The translations under genes were made by a program, and so were the position numbers. A stretch of 64,000 nt of DNA, taken from positions 259,900-323,899 of the forward strand of contig JACEUQ010000003.1 in assembly GCA_024998815.1 (NCBI GenBank), written 5' to 3'. Positions 1 to 26,900 of this stretch are shown here, one piece after another. The first letter of the stretch is position 1; each line of letters opens with the position of its first letter. The notes beneath the pieces were generated by a model that saw nothing but the letters and a program-made list of their open reading frames with translations, had not been told where the DNA came from and ran no database searches. The stretch comes from Opitutus sp. (GTDB lineage Bacteria; Verrucomicrobiota; Verrucomicrobiia; Opitutales; Opitutaceae).

Positions 1-2
1 AG

Positions 3-437
3 AACTGGGCGCGCGAACTCGACGTGCCGCCCTTCAAGGTCTGCAACGGCGACATGCTGCTCAACATCGCCTACGCCGCCGAAGACGGAGACTCGGTCGA
101 AGGCATTCTCGGCAAAGTTAACCTAGGCAAGCGCCACGCCCGGCTCTCCGCGAACCTCGGCAGCGCCCTGCACCAAGGCATCGGCCGCGACCCGCAAACC
201 CTGCCCCGCCGCCCCCGCTCCGACCTTGCCCCGCTCACGCCGCGCGAAATCGCCCTGCAAGACCGCATCAAGGCGGACCGCGACCGCGTTGCCGCCGGGA
301 TCGGCCTTGAATCCACGCTGATCGCCAACCGCGCGCAACTGGCCCAGATCGCCCGCGCCCCCGACAAAATCGACGAAGTCCTGCTGCCCTGGCAGGCCAA
401 TTTGTTGCGTGGCGAAGCCTCGCTGCAGCCCGCCTGA
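3..437 (+). CDS. C-terminal part of ribonuclease D / HRDC-domain protein (5' end outside window)
   Basis: Frame open from the window edge: NWARELDVPPFKV...IANRAQLAQIAR...WQANLL, which resembles HRDC helices of RNase D-like proteins. Confidence 0.65.
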   Translation, partial: NWARELDVPPFKVCNGDMLLNIAYAAEDGDSVEGILGKVNLGKRHARLSANLGSALHQGIGRDPQTLPRRPRSDLAPLTPREIALQDRIKADRDRVAAGIGLESTLIANRAQLAQIARAPDKIDEVLLPWQANLLRGEASLQPA

Positions 438-592
438 GCGCACCCCCGCTGCATCCGGTTTTAACCTGATGACGAACACCCGCAACACGCGGAAAAACTC
501 ACCGTGTTACACCTGAACTCTCTCGGCAAAATCACCGCCATCGAGTTCGTTGATGCCGAAAAAAACCTGCCCGTAATCTTCAACCTCAGCCC

Positions 593-1003
593 ATGAGCGT
601 CGCCGCCAAACAAACCCAACTCCTCGAAGACCTCGGACTGATCGAGGACTCACAGGAGCGCCTTGCCGCCATCGTGGACCGTTCCCGCCGCCGGCCGGTT
701 TTCCCCGAAACGGCCAAAACCGACGCCCACCGGGTTACCGGCTGCATTTCCGCAGTCTGGGTTGCCGGCGAGCTACGCGGCGGCGTGCTTCACTTTCAAT
801 TCGAGGCCGACTCGCCGCTGGTCAAAGGCTTGGTCGCGCTGCTGGCGGACCTCTACGAAGGCGGCACACCCGCCGACATCGCCGCGACCGAGCCTACGCT
901 GCTCGACGAACTCGGCATCACGCGTGATTTGACGCCCACGCGCCGCAACGGCCTGGCGGCGGTGCGCACCCACATCGCCGCCATCGCCCGCTCGCACCTG
1001 TAA
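593..1003 (+). CDS. sufE: SufE family Fe-S cluster assembly protein
   Basis: RVTGCISAVW, FEADSPLVKGLVALL, LTPTRRNGL motifs; 136 aa. Confidence 0.85.
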   Translation: MSVAAKQTQLLEDLGLIEDSQERLAAIVDRSRRRPVFPETAKTDAHRVTGCISAVWVAGELRGGVLHFQFEADSPLVKGLVALLADLYEGGTPADIAATEPTLLDELGITRDLTPTRRNGLAAVRTHIAAIARSHL

Positions 1004-1041
1004 AGGTAACGAAGTCAGCCCCGCCTTCTCCGACGTTTTTA

Positions 1042-1118
1042 AAAGTAGCGCAGACTTCCAGTCTGCTCAGATCCGGAAACCCGATACATCCAAGCAGACT
1101 GGAAGTCTGCGCTACTTT
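1042..1118. repeat. REP family A (GTAG-type) inverted pair / REPIN
   Basis: Perfect 26-bp inverted arms AAAGTAGCGCAGACTTCCAGTCTGCT (1042-1067, 1093-1118); each arm is GTAG plus the hairpin GCAGAC-TTCCA-GTCTGC. Confidence 0.9.
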
Positions 1119-1148
1119 AAACCGCCCTTCCACCGCCCTCCGCCACCC

Positions 1149-2084
1149 ATGCTGCATGACGCGCACAACCACCTTCAAGACGAAGGGTTCGCCGCGCACC
1201 TGGAGCGCATCGCCGACTGCGCGCGCGAACTCGGGATTGCCGACATGGTGGTGAACGGCACCTGCGAAACCGACTGGCCCCTCGTCCACGCCCTCGCGCA
1301 ACGCTACGCCTTTGTTCGCCCCAGCTACGGCCTGCACCCCTGGGACGCGGGCAACCGCTCGCCCGCCTGGCTTGAAACCCTGCGCGCCCGCCTCGCCGCC
1401 GAACCCCGCGCCGCCATCGGCGAAATCGGTATCGACCGCTGGATCCTCGACTCGGCCCGCCCCGACGACGCTCGCCTGGCAGGCCTGCGCCGCGCCCCCC
1501 TCGCCGAGCAGACGGAGGTTTTTTTGGCGCAACTGGCATTGGCCACCGCCGAAAACCGCCCGGTGACGATTCACTGCCTACAAGCCTACGGGCAACTCGA
1601 CGAACTGCTGCACGCGCACCCCGTGCCCGCGCGCGGTTTTTTGCTCCATGCCTACGCCGGCCCCGCCGCGCTCATCCCCCGCTTTGCCGCCCTCGGCGCC
1701 TATTTCTCCTTCAACGGCTACTTCCTCAAAGACGCCCACGCCCCTGCGCACCCCAGCCCCAACTCCAACCCCAACTTCCACTCCAACTCCCACCCCAACC
1801 CAAAGTGTCACCTAATAGGTGACACTTTGGGTTGGGGCGGGCGGTTGGAGGCGTTTAAACGGGTGCCGCTGGACCGGCTTTTGGTGGAGACCGATGCGCC
1901 GGCCATGCCGCTGCCTACGGCTTGGCGCACCCATAAACTCCCGCCGGCAGCCGATAGCTCGCCCCTCAACCACCCCGGCAATCTCGAAGCCGCCTACATC
2001 GCCTTGGCGGCCTTACGCGGGATTCCGCTGGCAGAACTCACGTCGCAGGCCACCGCCAACTTCACCCGCTTGTTCGGGCCGTAA
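1149..2084 (+). CDS. TatD family metal-dependent hydrolase/nuclease with an in-frame repeat-derived insert
   Basis: DAHNH, YGLHPW, IGEIGID, TIHC, LLHAY, LLVETDAP motifs. Confidence 0.9.
   Translation: MLHDAHNHLQDEGFAAHLERIADCARELGIADMVVNGTCETDWPLVHALAQRYAFVRPSYGLHPWDAGNRSPAWLETLRARLAAEPRAAIGEIGIDRWILDSARPDDARLAGLRRAPLAEQTEVFLAQLALATAENRPVTIHCLQAYGQLDELLHAHPVPARGFLLHAYAGPAALIPRFAALGAYFSFNGYFLKDAHAPAHPSPNSNPNFHSNSHPNPKCHLIGDTLGWGGRLEAFKRVPLDRLLVETDAPAMPLPTAWRTHKLPPAADSSPLNHPGNLEAAYIALAALRGIPLAELTSQATANFTRLFGP
1793..1837. repeat. Perfect 22-bp inverted repeat with 1-nt spacer inside the TatD CDS
   Basis: CCCCAACCCAAAGTGTCACCTA-A-TAGGTGACACTTTGGGTTGGGG; the 27-bp core recurs at 4125-4151. Confidence 0.95.
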
Positions 2085-2197
2085 GCCCCAGCCCAACCAG
2101 TAAAACGCCCCTCCATCTGCCCCCCCTCCATGCGCTGCAAGCCCCAGGTAAACCTCACGACTCCGGCCCTGCGTTTCACTCCTCCCGTGCGCCCCTC

Positions 2198-2779
2198 ATG
2201 ACCCTGTCCCTGCGAACCCTCCTGTTAACCGGCCTGCTTGCCTGCGCAGCCCCTTTTGCCGCAGCCAGTGAACCTCCTCACACCGCCGCCCTGCGCGTCA
2301 GCGACGACGCCCAGGAAACCACCCTCCCGCTACGTGGCAACGGACTCCTGCGCTGGAAATGGCTGGTGAGGCTCTATCACGCCTCCTTGTACCTAGCGCC
2401 CTCGGCCATCGACGCCGTTTCCGCTGCACCCAAACGCTTGCGCATGGATTACCTGCATGGCTTCAGCCGGGCCGAAATGGTTCACGCCACCGAACAGACC
2501 ATCGGCCGCAACATCGATGCCGCCACGCTTTTGACCCTGCAGCCCTCGCTGGCTAAATGGAACGCCCTTTACCCCGCCATCAAAGTGGGCGACTGCCTTG
2601 AGTTCGACCATCTCTCCGGGGGATTCCTGATCATGCGCCACAACGGGACGGTCCTCGGGTCGCTTGTCGATGAGGTCTTCGCCCAGGCCCTCTTCGCCAT
2701 CTGGATAGGCGCCAACCCCGTTGACCGGGATCTGCGCCAAAAGCTGATTCAGCCCCAAGGCAGCGTTAGTAGGCAGTAA
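2198..2779 (+). CDS. Chalcone isomerase-like family secreted protein
   Basis: Signal peptide; LRGNGLLRWKWLVRLYHASLYL and FAQALFAIWIGANPVDRDLRQKL patterns. Confidence 0.75.
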   Translation: MTLSLRTLLLTGLLACAAPFAAASEPPHTAALRVSDDAQETTLPLRGNGLLRWKWLVRLYHASLYLAPSAIDAVSAAPKRLRMDYLHGFSRAEMVHATEQTIGRNIDAATLLTLQPSLAKWNALYPAIKVGDCLEFDHLSGGFLIMRHNGTVLGSLVDEVFAQALFAIWIGANPVDRDLRQKLIQPQGSVSRQ

Positions 2780-2832
2780 CCTTCGAGATGTCGGATCCAA
2801 CGGGTGTGGATTGCCGAAGGTTAACACTCCTA

Positions 2833-2923
2833 CATCAGTGAATATCAGTGCTCATCAGTGGTTAACTTGTATGGGGTTCACCGATCCGGGAGCGGAGTTT
2901 TTAACCACTGATGAACACTGATA
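2833..2923. repeat. Intergenic repeat family D (ATCAGTG units in inverted arrangement)
   Basis: TATCAGTGCTCATCAGTGGTTAA (2843-2865) vs TTAACCACTGATGAACACTGATA (2901-2923), 1 mismatch; lies between convergent genes. Confidence 0.8.
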
Positions 2924-2940
2924 AACCGAGACGGGAGCCG

Positions 2941-3807
2941 TCAGCCGAAGGCGAGACCCACGAGTTCGCGCAGGCGTTGCGGGTCGGTGGCGGAGGTCTT
3001 GGCGACGAAACCGCGGGCGTGCGCAAAGTGGACATCCGCCTCGCCGGCGATGCGGGTGAAGTCGAGTCGTTGGTTATCGCGGTGGCGGGTCAGCCCATAA
3101 CCTCCGCTGCGGCGATCGGGCGAAATGAGGGCGAGTACCCGGTTGCCCAGCCCCTGGCTTTCCACGTAGCGCTCGACGCCCGCCGAGGGATCGCCGGGCA
3201 GCGGTTCGGTGCGCGGAAGAAAGAGCACGCTCGGTGCGCCGGAGACGGTTTCGAGCGTCCAGATTTCGGCGTGGGTGCCGATGAAGTCCAGTCGCTCGCG
3301 CACGGAGCGCACGTACCCAAGCAGATCCTCGCCGATCATACGCATGATCTCCCAGAGCGGGTCGCCGTGCGCGAGACGCGTGGCTTGGGCGAAGCGGCGC
3401 AGGAGAGTGCCGTCGATTGGAGAGTTGAGTTTGCCAACGATGTCGCGGTCGACGCCGAGCCAGCGCGCGGTATCCATGGGGCCGCGACAGTCGAACCATT
3501 CGGCCGGTTCGAGCCATTCGCAGAACGCGCGCGTATCCTCATAGAGCCCGAGGTGGCGTAGCACCAAGGAGAGGGCGCACGTGGGCACGTAGTCGCGGGG
3601 CAATTGGTGGTGGTCGAAGTTGTTGAGCGCCGGGTCGTGGGAGAGGCCCACGTCGACGACGGCCATGGTGGTATCGGCCAAGTCGGCCGGTGAAGGCTCG
3701 CGGCGCAAGATGGGTGTGGGGTGCACCGCAAGCAGCACGCTACAAGCGAGAAACTCGTCCTTATGCGCCCCGCCGGGGTGGGTCAAAATCGTGGAGAAAG
3801 GCGTCAT
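2941..3807 (-). CDS. MYG1 (UPF0160) family protein
   Basis: ILTHPGGAHKDEFLAC, VVDVG, NNFDHHQ motifs. Confidence 0.85.
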   Translation of the reverse strand: MTPFSTILTHPGGAHKDEFLACSVLLAVHPTPILRREPSPADLADTTMAVVDVGLSHDPALNNFDHHQLPRDYVPTCALSLVLRHLGLYEDTRAFCEWLEPAEWFDCRGPMDTARWLGVDRDIVGKLNSPIDGTLLRRFAQATRLAHGDPLWEIMRMIGEDLLGYVRSVRERLDFIGTHAEIWTLETVSGAPSVLFLPRTEPLPGDPSAGVERYVESQGLGNRVLALISPDRRSGGYGLTRHRDNQRLDFTRIAGEADVHFAHARGFVAKTSATDPQRLRELVGLAFG

Positions 3808-3871
3808 TAGGCGCCGACGCTACCGGTTCTGCGCAGCGCGGCAATGGTGCCGCGAGAAAAACCTTCGTGCA

Positions 3872-4067
3872 GGGCGCATCCCAGTTTTTGAATAGTGAGC
3901 TGCTTTTCGCTGGAAAAAACGGGTCCTAGTGCCGTGTAGGTTCGTGCTCAGCGAAGCGGTGCGTGGCCCTGAGCGTGAGCTCAGGGTCTGGATGCGCAAA
4001 CACCGCGTAATCCCTGAGCTCACGCTCAGGGCCACAGGTATTGCTTTCCAGAAACTGAGATGCGCCC
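3872..4067. mobile_element. 196-bp MITE containing a REP-B inverted pair
   Basis: TIR GGGCGCATC(C/T)CAGTTT; 9-bp direct repeat CTTCGTGCA at 3863-3871 and 4068-4076; inverted sister copy at 15098-15385. Confidence 0.85.
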
Positions 4068-4119
4068 CTTCGTGCATCTCCACCGTTGCCAAAAAACCAT
4101 CGTCTCCGGCCCTCCCTCC

Positions 4120-4156
4120 AAGCCAAAGTGTCACCTAATAGGTGACACTTTAGGTT
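4120..4156. repeat. Second copy of the AAAGTGTCACCTAATAGGTGACACTTT palindrome, just downstream of the PhoD-like gene
   Basis: 27-bp core identical to 1802-1828. Confidence 0.9.
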
Positions 4157-4161
4157 CTGCC

Positions 4162-5532
4162 TCACGGCAGGGTGAACTCGAGCTGGATCGGGATCGCGCC
4201 CTGCGCGTCGCGTTCGGAGATGAGCACCTGGTGGCCGAGGCCGTCGGCGCCTTGGCGGCCGCTCCACTTTACCCGGATCTGGCGGCCGTCGTCTTCAATG
4301 TCCACCAGCCCGAATTGATTGAGCGTGTCGGTGGGCAGGCTTTGGTAACGGGCGCCGTGGCTGTAGGGGCCGCCTTTGTAGCTTCCGCGGTTGGCAATGG
4401 GGCCCGCTTGAAACACACGAATCGGCGCGCCTCCGCCTGTGGCGAAATCGCTGTTCGATCCGTCGTCGATCGCCGTCAGGTGAGCGTCACCCGACAAAAT
4501 CACCACCCGCCCGGTCAGGCCGTTCGCCTTGATAAAATCCGCGATTTCGGTGCGGTGCGCCGGGTAGCCTTGCCAACGATCGTCTTTGCTCGGTGCGCCA
4601 TTCCAGGGCACCGAGGACACCCAAAAAATCAGCGGACAATGCGCGTCACGTGCGGCGAGCAGTTCGGCGCGCAGCCAGGCGTCTTGCGCCGCACTCATCA
4701 TCCGCCGGCCGGCCGGATCACGTTCACTGCGCAGGTCGGAGAGGATAAAACGCACACGGCCCACCGTGAAGGCTTGGTCCACCGGAGCGCGGGGGGTTTC
4801 CGCCGCCACGGTCAGCGGGTAATGCGGCACCAGTTCGCGGTAATTACGCAGTGAGGCCTCGCGGCTGGGACTGGTGCGGTTGCTGTCGTTGGGGCCATAA
4901 TCGTGGTCGTCCCACTGGTAAACGAGCGGCGTGTTCGCCAGTAGCGTGCGCAAGCGCGGAGCGGCAAGGTGGGCATCGTAGGCCGCCCGAAAAACTTCGA
5001 CGCGGTTTTCGGCGATGTCGGCGTAATGAAAATCGCCGGTGTGCAGAAAAAAACGCGCGCCTTGCGCGGCGGCGGCGGTAAAAACCGGTGAGTTTTTCAC
5101 GCGCGCGCAGGAGCCCACTGCGAAGGAAAAACTGGCGGGCTTCCACGGCGCGGGAAAGGTGCGGAAGGAGCGCGCCTCGTCGTCGAGCGGAGTGCCGGTG
5201 GCCGCAATGAAACGGTAACAGTAGGTCGTATCGGGCCGGAGTCCACCGAGGTTAAAACGGTGCAGCGTGCCGGCGTCCATGGGTGCGGTCAGCACGGGAG
5301 CGATGAGTGATGGCGGAGCGGCGAGCAGTTCCAGTCGGGCGGACGTGGCGGTGTTGAGGCGGGCGGTGACGACCGCTTGCGCCTCGGTCAGTCCCCCCAC
5401 CCAAGCCCAGCCGACGGGGCTGGCAGATGTGGGGGCAGCGGGAGCCGGTGCGAGTTCGGCAGCGCGAGTCGGCGGAAAGCTGAAAGTTAGACTGAGCGCG
5501 AGGGCGAGGAACCGAAGGAAGAGGAAGCGCAT
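4162..5532 (-). CDS. Alkaline phosphatase D (PhoD-like) family protein, secreted
   Basis: Signal peptide; FAVGSC, LHTGDFHYAD, QWDDHDYGPND, LSGDAH motifs. Confidence 0.88.
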   Translation of the reverse strand: MRFLFLRFLALALSLTFSFPPTRAAELAPAPAAPTSASPVGWAWVGGLTEAQAVVTARLNTATSARLELLAAPPSLIAPVLTAPMDAGTLHRFNLGGLRPDTTYCYRFIAATGTPLDDEARSFRTFPAPWKPASFSFAVGSCARVKNSPVFTAAAAQGARFFLHTGDFHYADIAENRVEVFRAAYDAHLAAPRLRTLLANTPLVYQWDDHDYGPNDSNRTSPSREASLRNYRELVPHYPLTVAAETPRAPVDQAFTVGRVRFILSDLRSERDPAGRRMMSAAQDAWLRAELLAARDAHCPLIFWVSSVPWNGAPSKDDRWQGYPAHRTEIADFIKANGLTGRVVILSGDAHLTAIDDGSNSDFATGGGAPIRVFQAGPIANRGSYKGGPYSHGARYQSLPTDTLNQFGLVDIEDDGRQIRVKWSGRQGADGLGHQVLISERDAQGAIPIQLEFTLP

Positions 5533-5579
5533 GAGGTAGGATTAGAATCGGAGTGAACGACGCCACATTCGGTGAGAGG

Positions 5580-6707
5580 CTAGGGACTGCGACGGGGTGA
5601 AGGCGCGGGATCGGGCTTCCACGCGTAGCCTTTAGCCTCGGCGTCGGCCCAGAGCAGCGGCCAGTTGCGGCGGAACTGTTCGGGGCCGTTGACCTGCCAC
5701 TGGCTCCAACCGAAACCCAGGCGCTCGCAGGTTTGAAGGACGAATTCGTCGCTGCCGAAACTCACAGAACGCTCACTATCACCGGCCTTCAGCCCGAGTT
5801 TCTCCGCCGTGTACCCGGCGGGAAAGTTGTTCTCTGAGGGCCAGCCGGGGAAATCGCGGTGCAAGGCGCGAAGGTTTTCCGCCTTGGGAAACAGGTTCGG
5901 ATCGGCGTGGTAAAGGTGGTAGGCCACGGAGGTCTTGGACCAGTCAATGGGGCCGGCGAGCTTTTGAAAAAAACGCGTGAGGTTGCCCATGGCCGTGAGT
6001 GTTCCCCAGCCGGAAACGCCAGCGGGCGAGAGAATCATCAGGTGAGTTGCTGGCGCGAGCGTGCGAGCGGTGGCGTGGACGCGAACCAGTGCTTCGAGGG
6101 TGCCCGTAGCGGCAGGGTCGAGGGCACCGTCGTGGCCGGGTCCGGCGAGGGGCTCGTTGGCGAGTTCGTAGATGACGTGGGTGCGGTTGGCGAAAAACGG
6201 GGCGACGGCGCGCCACAGTCCGTTGTTGAGCTTTTCGTCGTATTTCGGTGCCGGTCCCGGGACGCGGTTGTGGGCGTTGACGATGGCGTAGAGGCCGTTT
6301 TTCGAACAGAGGTTCACGGCGTGCTCGATGCGCTTCAGCATGGCCTGGCGGTACTCGGGGTTGTCCCAATCGTACTTCCGATAACCCTCTTCGTGGATCC
6401 ACACGTCGAAGAGGATCAGGCGCACGGCGTTGAGCCCGGCTTTGCGCAGGTCCGCGTAGTAGGAGTCGGGCGGTTCCGTGGGCGGCTCCGACCAGAGCCA
6501 AGCGGTGCCGGCGCGCAGCGGCGTGTTTGCATCGGTGCGCAGAACCTTGAGTCGGGTGTTCGGCTGATCGACATCCGCGATCTCGACGACGCGGATACGG
6601 GCGCGGTCGGTGCGAAGCGGAGGGGAAAGCGTTTGGGCGGCGGCAAACGATGCGGTGCAGACGAGCGCGAAGGAGACAAGGGTGATGAGGGTAAGGAGTG
6701 GCCTCAT
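5580..6707 (-). CDS. Glycoside hydrolase family 5-like secreted protein
   Basis: Signal peptide; GLNAVRL, YAIVNAH, VIYELANEP (acid/base), AYHLY, PSENN (nucleophile region). Confidence 0.75.
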   Translation of the reverse strand: MRPLLTLITLVSFALVCTASFAAAQTLSPPLRTDRARIRVVEIADVDQPNTRLKVLRTDANTPLRAGTAWLWSEPPTEPPDSYYADLRKAGLNAVRLILFDVWIHEEGYRKYDWDNPEYRQAMLKRIEHAVNLCSKNGLYAIVNAHNRVPGPAPKYDEKLNNGLWRAVAPFFANRTHVIYELANEPLAGPGHDGALDPAATGTLEALVRVHATARTLAPATHLMILSPAGVSGWGTLTAMGNLTRFFQKLAGPIDWSKTSVAYHLYHADPNLFPKAENLRALHRDFPGWPSENNFPAGYTAEKLGLKAGDSERSVSFGSDEFVLQTCERLGFGWSQWQVNGPEQFRRNWPLLWADAEAKGYAWKPDPAPSPRRSP

Positions 6708-9159: not shown

Positions 9160-9192
9160 AATGACCAATGACCAATGACCAATGACCAATGA
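9160..9192. repeat. Heptamer tandem array (AATGACC)4.7 between murA and ruvB
   Basis: Perfect tandem units; degenerate complementary units at about 9279-9299. Confidence 0.9.
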
Positions 9193-12762: not shown

Positions 12763-12890
12763 ACCTTGAGCTCACGCTCAGGGCCACGCCCGGCCCAAGA
12801 AATCCTCCCACCACCTTGAGCTCACGCTCAGGGCCACACCCGGCCCAAGAAATCCTCCCACCACCCTGAGCTCACGCTCAGGGCCACGCC
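12763..12890. repeat. Tandem array of a 50-bp unit (about 2.5 copies) containing REP-B
   Basis: CC(T/C)TGAGCTCACGCTCAGGGCCAC at 12764, 12814, 12864 with near-identical linkers; a REP-B variant follows at 12940-12963. Confidence 0.9.
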
Positions 12891-13010
12891 CTGCAACCCT
12901 CGCCGTGGACTCGAACGCCCCCGTTGACCGGCACTCCCCGTGGCCTTGCGCGTGAGCGCAGGGTGTTTTTCTCCACCGGGATTCGCCCCTCCCCTCCGCC
13001 TCTCCGCGCC

Positions 13011-15097: not shown

Positions 15098-15385
15098 GGG
15101 CGCATCCCAGTTTCTGAAAAGGGGGACCTGTGGCCCTGAGCGTGAGCTCAGGGATTACGCGGTATTTGCGCATCCAGACCCTGAGCTCACGCTCAGGGCC
15201 ACGCACCTGAATGCCCCTCCTCGTAGCCTTGCGCGTGAGCGCAGGGTGTTTTGCCCCACCCGTATCCCTGAGCTTCCCTGAGCTCACGCTCAGGGCCACG
15301 CACCGTTTCGCTGAGCACGAACCTACACTAGGACCCGTTTTTTCCAGCGAAAAGCAGCTCACTATTCAAAAACTGGGATGCGCCC
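15098..15385. mobile_element. 288-bp MITE (inverted sister of 3872-4067) carrying extra REP-B units
   Basis: 16-bp perfect TIR GGGCGCATCCCAGTTT; 8-bp direct repeat CCTAACCC at 15090-15097 and 15386-15393. Confidence 0.85.
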
Positions 15386-23981: not shown

Positions 23982-26900
23982 TTATCCGGCAGGATAACGG
24001 AGCACGGGCTTGGGCGCGTCGGGCGTCGGCGCGAAGGGCACCACTTTCCAGAACTTGGCCACCGTCGCAGCCCAGTCCGCCAGCAACGCCTGCGCATACG
24101 GGCTCGTCGTCGCTTTCGCGTGCGCCGCCACCAGCTGCTTCAGGCTTTCGATTTCCTCGGCCCCGCTCAGGCGCTCCAGGCCGATCATCGCCGGGTTGAT
24201 GTTCTTCGGCAGGCTCTCGGCGGGGTCATAAATGAAGGCCAACCCGCCGCTCATACCGGCGCCGAAATTGCTGCCAGTCGGCCCGAGAATCACCACCGTG
24301 CCCACCGTCATGTACTCGCAGCCGTGGTCACCCACGCCTTCGACCACGGTGGTCGCCCCGGAGTTACGCACCGCGAAACGCTCACCCGCCCGCCCCGCCG
24401 CAAACAGCGTGCCGCCGGTCGCCCCGTACAAGCAGGTGTTGCCCAACAGCGCCTGCTCGTTCCACGCAAAGGTCTCGCTCGGCTTGGGGCGCACGATGAT
24501 CTCACCGCCGTTGATGCCTTTGCCCACGTAATCGTTGGCCTCGCCAATCAGGGTCAGGCGCAGGCCGTTGACCAAAAACGCGCCGAAACTCTGGCCGGCC
24601 GAACCGGTAAAGGTCAGGTCGATCGTGCCCGCCGGCAGGCCTTCGTTGCCGTGCTGGTAGGCGATCTGGCCGGAGATCTGCGTGCCGATGTCGCGGTTGA
24701 CGTTGGTCACCTTGTAGCGGGCAACCAGCCGCGAGGACTCGCCCAGAATGACGTCGCGCGCCTCCTGCAGGATTGCCTCGTCGAGCGAGCCTTCGCCACC
24801 GAAACGCTCGTTGCGCTGGCGGGTGTGGAAACGGTCCGTTTCGCCCGAGGGATCGGGGTTGTGCAACAGGCCGGAGAGGTCGACCAACTTGCTCTTCGGG
24901 TTCGCCGGGTCGTCGATCTGCTCCAAGAGGTCAACGCGACCGACAATCTCGTTGAGGTTACGCGCGCCGAGTTTGGCGAGGTAATGGCGCACGTCCTCGG
25001 CGACGGCGTTGAAGAAGTTGATGATGTTCTCGGGCTTGCCGCGGAACTTGGCGCGCAGGTCTTCGCGCTGGGTGGCGACGCCGACCGGGCAGGTATTCAA
25101 GTGGCAAACACGGAACATCGCGCAGCCGCCGGCGATGAGCGCGGCGGTGCCGAAGTTGAACTCCTCGGCGCCGAGCAACGCAGCGATCACGATGTCGCGG
25201 CCGGTTTTCATGCCGCCGTCGGTGCGCAACGTGACGCGGCCACGCAGGCCGTTCATCATCAGAACCTGGTGGGCCTCGGCCACGCCGATTTCCCAGACCG
25301 AGCCGGCGTTTTTGATCGAGGCGAGCGGCGAGGCGCCCGTGCCGCCATCGTGGCCGGAGACCAAGATGACGTCGGCGTAGGCCTTGGCCACGCCGGCGGC
25401 GACGGTGCCGACGCCGGAGCTGGAGACGAGTTTAACGCAGACCTTGGCGCGCGGGTTAACTTCCTTGATGTCGAAGATCAGCTGGGCGAGGTCCTCAATC
25501 GAGTAGATGTCGTGGTGCGGCGGGGGCGAGATGAGCGTCACGCCGGGCACGCTGAAGCGCAGCTTGGCGATGAGCGGGGTGACCTTGGCGCCGGGCAATT
25601 GGCCGCCCTCGCCGGGCTTGGCGCCCTGGGCCATCTTGATCTCGATTTCCTTGGCGGAAGACAGGTAAGCGGGCGTGACACCGAAACGACCGGATGCGAT
25701 CTGCTTGATCGCGGAGTTGGCGTTGTCGCCGTTGGCGCGGACGTTGAAACGGTCGGGATCCTCGCCGCCTTCGCCGGAGTTGGATTTGCCGCCGATGCGG
25801 TTCATGGCGATGGCGAGAGCCTCGTGCATCTCGGGCGAGAGCGCGCCCATCGACATACCGGCGGTGGTGAAGCGCTGGCGGATTTCCTCGATCGGCTCGA
25901 CCTCGTCGAGGGCGATCGGCGTGGCGGCGGAGAAGCGGATCTTGAGGATGTCCTTGATGGAAACCGGCGCGTGGTCGTCGGCCTGGGTTTTCCACTCGTT
26001 GTAGGATTCGGCAGAACCGCCGGCGCGCACGAACTTGTTCATGGCGGAGACGACCTTGGGGTTCCAACCGTGGAACTCGCCTTCGCCCTTCTTGTTGACG
26101 CGGTAATACCCCTCATTGCCGAGGTCGGCGGGAGCGGAGCTCAGAGGTAAGAGCTCAGAGCTGGGAGCTTGGGGCTGGGAGCTCGGAGCTGGGAGCTCAG
26201 AGCTCTTAGCTCCTAGCTCATAGCTCGCCTCGGGATAAGCGCGGGAGTGGCGGCGGAGGGCCTCTATGGCGATCTCGGGGTAACCGATGCCGCCGATGGG
26301 CGAGGCGGTGCCGGTGAAGTTCGCCTCGATGAGTTTCTTGGAGACGCCAAGGGCCTCGAACATCTGCGCGCCCCGGTAGGAGAGCAGCGTGGAAATGCCC
26401 ATCTTGGCCATGATCTTGAGCAGGCCGGCGTCGATGGTGGTCTTGTAGTTGAGCAAGGCCTGGGCGACGGTGACCGGCTTGGTGGTGGCCCCGGAGGTGG
26501 CCAGACCGGCAACGAGCTCGAGCGCAAGGTAGGGGTTAACCGCATTGCTGCCGAAGGCGAGCAGGGTGGCGATCTGGTGAACGTCACGGGCTTCGCCGGT
26601 CTCGGCCATGAGGTCGGCCTGCAGGCGTAAACCGGCGCGCACCAGCTGCTGATTCACCGCACCGACGGCCAGAAGCATCGGAATGGCGGCCAGCTTGGCG
26701 TTCGCACCGCGGTCGGAAACGATCACCAGCTTGGCGCCGGCCTTGCCGACGGCGGCCTCGGCCTGGGCAGCGAGGGCCTTGACGGCGGCCTCGAGCGCGT
26801 CGGGGCCTTGCGAGGCGTCGAACAGGGCGGGCAGACGCACGACGCGATCCTTCAGGAAGGACACCTCAAAGAGCGCGGCCACCTCGTGGTCGAACAGGAT

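Follow-up and report, generated by a model that had tools for sequence, protein, structure and literature searches.

The 64,000-nt stretch of Opitutus sp. DNA analysed here (referred to as the window) carries a gene for a TatD-family metal-dependent hydrolase (1149..2084, forward strand, 311 amino acids) whose reading frame contains a copy of a dispersed palindromic repeat. The protein is a member of the Pfam family TatD_DNase (PF01026; E = 3e-44, 151.7 bits, cut-off 27). The insert interrupts the PF01026 profile itself: the match is broken there into residues 4-194 and a C-terminal portion. The inserted segment (K194-G231, 1728..1841, forward strand) sits between FSFNGYFL and RLEAFKRVPLDRLLVETDAP of the protein and stands in place of a short ancestral DPRHAKHQ-like loop. 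Its two components had been described in a first-pass annotation of this DNA, and their coordinates were confirmed. One is a run of hexamers (1750..1801, forward strand; consensus ACCCCA / CCAACT, translated as HPSPNSNPNFHSNSHPNP), for which Tandem Repeats Finder gave 8.7 copies of a 6-nt period and also 4.3 copies of a 12-nt period. The other is a 27-bp dyad core, AAAGTGTCACCTAATAGGTGACACTTT (1802..1828, forward strand), translated as KCHLIGDTL. The arms of the inverted repeat, 1789-1814 and 1816-1841, measure 26 nt and are 96% complementary across a gap of 1 nt, and the inner 22 nt are perfect, as had been reported. The insert is read in frame as HPSPNSNPNFHSNSHPNPKCHLIGDTLGWG, also as previously claimed, and a tryptic fragment of this peptide spans CHLIGDTLGWGGR.

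The RNA folding and inverted-repeat searches showed that pairing extends beyond the core, with a hairpin or cruciform potential of 33 bp and two bulges at 1781..1850. As RNA, this stretch gives a near-perfect 33-bp hairpin with a free energy of -60.7 kcal/mol (z = -11.9 with respect to shuffles), at whose outer end the last hexamers (CTCCAAC) pair with the right flank GGTTGGAG, the codons of R-L-E. In public sequencing runs, the TatD region was represented by fragmentary freshwater metagenome contigs and one metatranscriptome (8% of words), none of which crosses the palindrome. The 33-bp hairpin helps to account for the breaks of short-read assemblies at the insert. One metagenome contig weakly suggests that strains with an even longer hexamer run exist.

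The 27-mer is present in exactly two copies in the window (0 expected, from 100 shuffles). The second, at 4125-4151, is an exact match, as had been noted, and forms the core of an intergenic palindrome at 4120..4156. It lies 10 nt past the stop codon of a PhoD-like phosphatase gene (4162..5532, reverse strand, PF09423), the 3' end of which adjoins it, and upstream of a MYG1-like gene (2941..3807, reverse strand). Diverged copies of the 27-mer and lone half-sites were searched across the window and none was present. In another species (locus L033) a palindrome is found at the position equivalent to 4120..4156, with an identical core and diverged flanks.

The insert was compared with TatD orthologs using 120 homologs and 80 genomic loci. 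In about 50 insert-free Opitutaceae orthologs the FSFNG..ETDAP segment is exactly 35 amino acids long and contains a conserved DPRK/GERQ-type loop. In the window the same segment measures 67 amino acids. An equally long segment in orthologs lacking the repeat, which the first-pass annotation had singled out as contradicting an insertion, is thus not seen. Its estimate of about 30 added residues agrees with the net gain of 32; these residues, though, derive from two events rather than one. An older palindrome insertion of about 13-15 amino acids is common to species whose TatD proteins are 67-93% identical. The hexamer-encoded run of about 17 amino acids is confined to the window and, in partial form, to P0001, the closest relative (93% identity), and is absent at 86% identity or less; it therefore represents a recent expansion on top of the older insert. 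The other insert-bearing orthologs are longer than the insert-free ones by 9 to 28 amino acids.

Among these orthologs, the TatD palindrome is intact in L038 (with one arm mismatch), L039, L044 (with a changed loop) and L077, occurs as the variant TTTGTCACTTAaTAAGTGACAAA, changed in both arms, in L042 and L043, and is more diverged in L085 and L097. L040, L041 and L045 have only decayed versions of it, and their peptide is likewise not conserved. Where the palindrome persists, differences affect both arms and so preserve the pairing: between the window and L038, whose proteins are 86% identical, stem offsets 14 and 19 are changed on both sides, and between the window and L042/L043 offsets 3, 10 and 11 differ.

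All six metal-binding residues (H6, H8, E92, H142, H167 and D249) are invariant in the 38 orthologs compared. The AlphaFold2 model of the window protein, obtained with 38 sequences, is a confident TIM barrel (mean predicted local distance difference test score, pLDDT, 88.6; predicted template modelling score 0.86), with the exception of residues 205-226, for which pLDDT is below 50. These residues follow strand beta7 (184-189) and a short helix (190-195) and are succeeded by helix 231-238, ahead of beta8. The model therefore supports the earlier proposal of an insertion into a TIM-barrel loop, and specifies it: rather than in a generic surface loop, the insert is predicted to lie on the barrel's catalytic face, in the loop between beta7 and alpha7. 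With the catalytic residues intact, the simplest reading is that of a disordered loop which the enzyme tolerates.

The palindrome belongs to a family of dyads with the design TGTCAC-N7-GTGACA within the conserved 27-mer, often with additional self-complementary flanks. In species-representative genomes the exact 27-mer was found in 37 loci, all of them from Opitutaceae or from Rariglobus metagenome-assembled genomes (MAGs). The 19-mer TGTCACYTAWTARGTGACA was found in at least 120 loci, all but two from Opitutales among the matches listed. The repeat is therefore a dispersed element, as had been proposed from its two copies in the window. The two non-Opitutales matches, in a Marmoricola MAG (L119) and in Dysgonomonas sp. 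520 (L160), could be due to chance, binning contamination or transfer. Lone arms or half-sites were absent from about 700 kb of fetched loci. This and the size of the palindrome, only 27-45 bp, exclude a miniature inverted-repeat transposable element (terminal inverted repeats, target-site duplications and a size of 70-300 bp). No autonomous element bounded by the two arms was found either: lone half-sites are missing, and the genes that lie between paired dyads in L143 and L161 encode no transposase but an ABC transporter, a membrane protein and a duplicated acetyltransferase.

On each strand only one of the three frames through the palindrome is open, reading KCHLIGDT or KCHLLGDT, and every in-frame copy in our census uses this frame. 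As a consequence, the surviving coding copies all read KCHL[IL]GD[TK], a peptide that can serve in annotation as a mark of palindrome inserts. The search for CHLIGDT and CHLLGDT peptides that had been recommended indeed returned the same peptide in frame in other, unrelated proteins. Besides TatD, in-frame copies were found in eight genes whose Pfam domains either flank the insert or extend across it. These are a 3beta-HSD/epimerase, a DinG-like helicase, YjeF, a P-type ATPase, ThiE/TenI, an AMP-ligase and a methyltransferase with two copies each, and an HPPK-PabB fusion with three. A further in-frame doublet was found in a membrane-protein ORF, which the Pfam scan did not cover. The three copies in the HPPK-PabB fusion (L029, 5700-6130) are of two subtypes (KCHLLGDT, KCHLIGDT and TCHLISDK), so that one genome can harbour more than one subtype and one protein can tolerate several inserts. 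The YjeF linker, 48-51 amino acids long in its ancestral form and 57-61 with insert, has the same history as TatD, with KCHLIGDT and VCHLLSDK types, decayed forms and doublets. In the methyltransferase both copies are at one site, and another genome has two copies of a different subtype at that same site.

In a crude census of 198 unique copies, 23 were in frame (a lower bound), 89 (45%) lay within 150 nt past a stop codon, at a median distance of 43 nt, and 86 were unclear. The positions at 10-18 nt from the centre vary between copies and are complementary within each copy, with a frequency that falls from 90% to 45% as compared to 30-38% in shuffled controls; past 18 nt there is no signal. 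At orthologous sites in different species the core is identical while the coding or noncoding flanks have diverged. Intergenic copies at orthologous positions were seen in L007 (1819) and L030 (3279), and again in L008, L017 and L025; one such copy precedes the same gene (MTTFHEP...) in each case, 16-20 nt before its start codon, where a regulatory site would be expected. A sister subtype with swapped half-sites (TGACAC..GTGTCA, TTGACACTTAWTAAGTGTCAA), sampled in L320-L399 and other loci from metagenome contigs, is equally dispersed and is often found within longer GC-rich hairpins. In 12 of its 124 copies it adjoins a gene of the family described below.

When ORFs with palindromes on both sides were considered, six out of eight turned out to encode a single family of 117-129 amino acid proteins with a predicted helix-turn-helix (HTH). 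A gene of this family was present in 13 of about 190 loci that had been fetched solely because they held the palindrome. Among the candidates scored, 2,817 clusters match the family at E <= 0.001; every one is annotated as 'hypothetical' and none has a Pfam domain; its named sources are only Rariglobus, Opitutus, Opitutae and Didemnitutus, and it is limited to Opitutales. The motifs PG..TP.WN, P-R-Q-R and P-D-A-E are invariant. Members were identified in L005 (6340-6693, reverse strand), L009, L144 (two genes), L232-L239 and L240-L319, with several paralogs per genome (up to three loci per genome among the 80 kept).

The converse search gave a consistent result. All seven loci fetched through the protein alone, corresponding to six distinct genes, have dyads on both sides of the HTH gene. 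Upstream there are one or two dyads: a first is centred 9-38 nt ahead of the annotated start, and a second is frequently present at 65-100 nt. Downstream there are one or two dyads 23-101 nt past the stop codon. The background of the loose dyad pattern used is 1.8 per 100 kb. Among 76 further loci from 80 Opitutales genomes, 43 have TGTCAC-type dyads, in 34 cases on both sides. About 20 of the remaining 33 have other perfect dyads adjoining the gene, built in the same way from two complementary 6-bp half-sites around an N7 spacer, with TAWTA as the usual centre (for example TGACACGTAATACGTGTCA, TGTCAACTATTAGTTGACA and ATGTTCGTAATACGAACAT). Considering the seven loci together with most of the 76, the start-region dyads have their centres 4-40 nt upstream, often with a second at 54-100 nt. 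Dyads are thus located at the promoter or start region of the putative regulator's own gene, the arrangement expected of an autoregulated repressor.

The dyad subtype tracks the protein subfamily. The subfamily of L005 and L009 is flanked by exactly the 27-mer found in TatD, and in L144 two paralogs 4 kb apart have each its own subtype. In one ortholog, whose neighbours are kept in the order aminotransferase, HTH, Dus across genera, all three flanking sites have changed from TGTCAC to TGTAAC in both arms.

As regards the nature of the protein, PHROGs matches of the family are transcriptional regulators, and Pfam gave matches, all below the gathering threshold, to YdaS_toxin (Cro-like) in 58 of 60 members and to HTH_3 in 18 of 60. 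The AlphaFold2 model (pLDDT 73.6) has a long N-terminal helix followed by four helices. Foldseek placed it closest to XRE regulators, HigA antitoxins, C-controller proteins and an HTH domain whose structure was determined on palindromic DNA, all at E >= 0.16 and none significant. No solved structure was matched by sequence at E <= 10 except for a spurious hit to JBP3; homology to MqsA was discarded on the same search. These indications are weak but consistent, and point to a putative Cro/XRE-like HTH protein.

Dyads often occur in pairs, and in 111 unique neighbouring pairs the distances between centres cluster at 42-49, 52-59, 65-69, 75-79 and 86-89 nt, with gaps between the clusters. The best period is 10.5 bp, with n*R^2 = 19.5 (n = 111), a value that is only indicative because the pairs are not phylogenetically independent. 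Such phasing fits proteins bound on one face of duplex DNA and not RNA hairpins. Examples of pairs are 3272/3339 in L118, 2795/2852 in L143 and 2436/2490 in L232. The spacers are not conserved, which rules out the pair as a fixed composite element.

Since identical palindromes bracket the HTH genes, the repeat is probably the binding site of the HTH family. On the sequence evidence, we consider the TatD palindrome to be probably a stray in-frame copy of an operator-like dyad, the predicted site of this family, which spread and has been tolerated in TatD. Cro/XRE-like proteins of about 117 amino acids would be the partner, with matching dyads bracketing nearly every gene. Copies of the dyad would have spread elsewhere, most of them to positions just downstream of genes and a minority inside genes. 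The ancestor of a Rariglobus-like clade would have gained one in the TatD beta7-alpha7 loop, where it may have been tolerated as a disordered loop with no role in the enzyme. In the lineage of the window, the C-rich left flank would then have expanded by hexamer slippage, and the arms would have grown to 33 bp.

Several results weigh against this interpretation. No gene of the HTH family lies within the window, and the Pfam and Foldseek matches that suggest DNA binding are, as said, below threshold or not significant. The sister subtype was in frame in 0 of 95 evaluable copies despite having one open frame, compared with a minimum of 12% for copies of the TGTCAC type. In about half of the copies the flanks are complementary as far as 18 nt; as a 19-bp protein site needs no such flanks, a process or role at the level of the hairpin is suggested as well. 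The dyads may have inserted into hairpin loops that were already there, one arm may have been copied from the other by template switching, or the hairpin may have a role of its own. Among the fetched loci we found only orthologous filled sites or very diverged intergenic DNA and no pair of empty and filled sites, without which a target duplication and the exact ends of the element are not definable. Transposase, target-site duplication and recent insertion pair were all missing from these loci, and the operator reading gives no account of how copies enter coding regions.

The history of the TatD insert is also less simple than a single gain. In a neighbour-joining tree with bootstrap, calculated after removal of the insert columns, insert-bearing genes are not monophyletic: L077 groups with the insert-free L046, L047 and L049 (100% bootstrap) and L085 with the insert-free L086 and L088 (89%). 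This counts as a further difficulty and implies either repeated insertion at one site or allele transfer by recombination between relatives. A single ancient gain followed by precise loss was rejected, because insert-free genes, some of them inside insert-bearing clades, retain the ancestral DPRK/GERQ loop sequence, which makes precise loss unlikely.

An extension of the operator reading, possible yet tentative, would be an undescribed genome-wide system in which each of many HTH paralogs has its own co-evolving 27-bp site, and these sites spread by themselves over the chromosome, including its ORFs. By analogy, it might be likened to a REPtron in which a DNA-binding protein takes the place of the transposase, or to a mobile operator. 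If such a system exists, protein bound inside ORFs could block transcription.

Among the alternatives, a purely selfish, non-autonomous mobile palindrome survives best, although we judge it unlikely. It would move by transposition, in the manner of Rickettsia palindromic elements or of repetitive extragenic palindromes (REPs), with no dedicated binding protein, and the brackets around HTH genes would be conserved insertion sites. It accounts well for the dispersal, for the length added with respect to orthologs, for the in-frame copies in loops or linkers of unrelated genes, for the several subfamilies per genome and for the decay of copies in some lineages, and intragenic REPs are most frequent in Opitutus terrae (PMC3733652). 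However, it leaves unexplained why nearly every HTH member is bracketed, at fixed distances upstream and also downstream, why subtype and subfamily match, and why pairs are phased at 10.5 bp. Moreover, selfish decay would not keep an identical core where orthologous flanks have diverged, and the lack of a transposase and of target duplications in the fetched loci also counts against this alternative.

Still less probable is a classical REP or REP dimer (REPIN), moved by a REP-associated tyrosine transposase (RAYT, an HUH Y1 transposase) and acting mainly as a post-gene hairpin in termination or mRNA stabilisation. The position of 45% of the copies shortly past stop codons, the frequent dimers, the subfamilies with complementary stem changes and a very stable hairpin with covarying outer stems are all REP-like, and the GTAG/GTGG-tagged dimers at 1039-1121 and 3963-4035 indicate that REP biology is active in this genome. 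On the other hand, the GTAG or CGTC tetranucleotide tag that defines the two REP superfamilies (PMC3733652) is missing, as neither the 27-mer nor its consensus flanks CCCAAACC/GGTTTGGG contain GTAG, CTAC, CGTC or GACG. In about 1.6 Mb of palindrome-centred loci no RAYT flanked by the repeats was found; the bracketed gene is instead that of the 117-aa HTH family, whose invariant residues include no HUH motif and no conserved tyrosine. An intrinsic terminator can be discarded: there is no U-tract, only TTT after the stem, a scan of 900-4400 does not flag it, and neither palindrome copy is called by the terminator/promoter scan. Copies also lie directly upstream of start codons. At a permissive threshold, a search of 1-6000 against Rfam returned only sub-threshold hairpins resembling microRNA precursors and no known RNA family. 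The peptides are unlike those of the O. terrae intragenic REPs listed in the supplement of PMC3733652, where CHLIGD is not found and a 'TatD' match was a chance string inside a peptide. In the literature, no paper contains the 19-mer, and on Opitutaceae palindromes nothing relevant was retrieved beyond Di Nocera et al. (2013).

Comparably improbable is that the dyads are core sites of a site-specific recombinase, with arms around an AT-rich central spacer as in dif or lox, the HTH genes being cassettes and the solitary dyads remnants or docking sites. Arms of 11 bp with a TAWTA centre, genes bracketed on both sides and several HTH paralogs per genome in different neighbourhoods would fit, and recombination between two flanking dyads would leave a solitary one. 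Yet in the protein-fetched loci no recombinase gene was seen adjoining the HTH modules, the conserved order aminotransferase-HTH-Dus across genera indicates stable inheritance, the site has no fixed polarity, its central base being A in some orthologs and T in others, and the helical phasing better suits cooperative binding. Finally, co-option by TatD, either with the Cys-His-Asp peptide adding metal ligands close to the active site or with the intragenic dyad or hairpin regulating the gene, is very improbable: the insert is on the catalytic face and its palindrome is kept across species with compensating changes, but the same peptide appears in unrelated proteins simply because one frame is open, is not conserved where the palindrome decayed (L040, L041 and L045), and forms a loop that is predicted to be disordered and varies in length from +9 to +32 amino acids.

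Other repeats are found in the window, and tagged REP dimers coexist there with the TatD-type palindrome. Between a SufE-like gene and TatD, at 1039-1121, there is a 34-nt inverted repeat whose arms are GTAG-tagged stem-loops (GTAGCGCAGACTTCCAGTCTGC); with its tags at the outer ends, and unrelated to the TatD palindrome, it looks like a classical REPIN. A second family, starting with GTGG (GTGGCCCTGAGCGTGAGCTCAGGG), is represented at 3963-4035, 12763-12891, 15265-15284 and about 15276-15385. In this family, a stretch of about 115 nt near 3872-3986 is 95% identical to 15385-15276, and the unit at 12763-12891 is in tandem (50 nt x 2.6). These repeats resemble the GTGG-tagged GTAG-20 REPs of O. 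terrae. An inverted repeat at 2843-2923 (TATCAGTGCTCATCAGTGGTTAA, 23-nt arms 35 nt apart, with 10-nt tandem units) separates a chalcone-isomerase-like gene from the MYG1-like gene. Heptamer arrays were seen at 26137-26226 (GAGCTCA x 12.9) and 9160-9192 (AATGACC x 4.7, perfect); GAGCTCA also occurs in the GTGG-tagged repeat.

In-frame palindromic repeats are already known in Rickettsia and as REPs in O. terrae (PMC10969869, PMC3733652), and the TatD insert is a further example. The Rickettsia elements, described by Ogata et al. (2000) as reported in PMC10969869 and PMC3733652, measure about 100-150 bp and belong to an obligate intracellular alphaproteobacterium. As far as these reports describe them, they share with the present palindrome the dispersal, the in-frame position in many unrelated, still open and probably functional genes, at places compatible with the fold, and a recurrent peptide. 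In these respects the comparison with Rickettsia made in the first-pass annotation holds, but the palindrome is not an element of the Rickettsia type. Size and kind are different: here the conserved unit is a near-perfect dyad that measures 27 bp, or some 45 bp at most when the outer stems are counted, with no GTAG/CGTC tag, in free-living freshwater Opitutales, the comparison being one of properties. The closest tie is to the small HTH genes bracketed by the dyad.

With the GTAG/CGTC REPs and REPtrons (PMC3733652) the family has in common short palindromes mostly downstream of ORFs, dimers, subfamilies with complementary stems, intragenic in-frame copies in Opitutaceae, which are most frequent in O. 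terrae (Di Nocera et al., 2013), and a cognate gene flanked by the repeats. It differs in the lack of the tag, in the peptide (CHLIGD as compared to VGPALAAG and others in REPs), in the flanked gene, which is a predicted Cro/XRE-like HTH and not an HUH tyrosine transposase, and in the helical phasing of the pairs.

One or two dyads before a small HTH gene are also typical of Cro/cI, C-controller, HigA and MqsA regulators, the class in which the best structural matches were found. Several dyad subtypes are centred on AACCT-WTT-AGGTT or CACCT-AAT-AGGTG, which may be compared with the palindromic site of MqsA, AACCT-N3-AGGTT (PMC4894380). Unlike these regulators, the HTH family has no significant homology to solved members, its sites are also found past the stop codon, hundreds of extra sites are scattered in the chromosomes, some of them in ORFs, and no toxin or restriction-modification partner was seen.

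Should binding of the dyad by the HTH protein prove true, a regulator's site would here have propagated in the way repeats do and become part of protein sequences. This would bear on the joint evolution of regulatory networks and protein loops, and would give a handle on a large unannotated gene family of abundant freshwater bacteria.

A dedicated small DNA-binding protein that recognises short palindromes at many chromosomal places, some of them in genes, is the principle of matS/MatP, parS/ParB and SBS/SlmA. The matS site (GTGACRNYGTCAC) has the same pentamers as the dyad subtypes in the opposite arrangement. The matS, parS and SBS sites are not known to bracket the gene of their own protein, to lengthen genes or to form many pairs of subtype and paralog. 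What appears to be new is a dispersed palindrome family, devoid of a REP tag and, in the DNA sampled, of a transposase partner, that is paired instead with small HTH genes, with matching subtypes and helical phasing.

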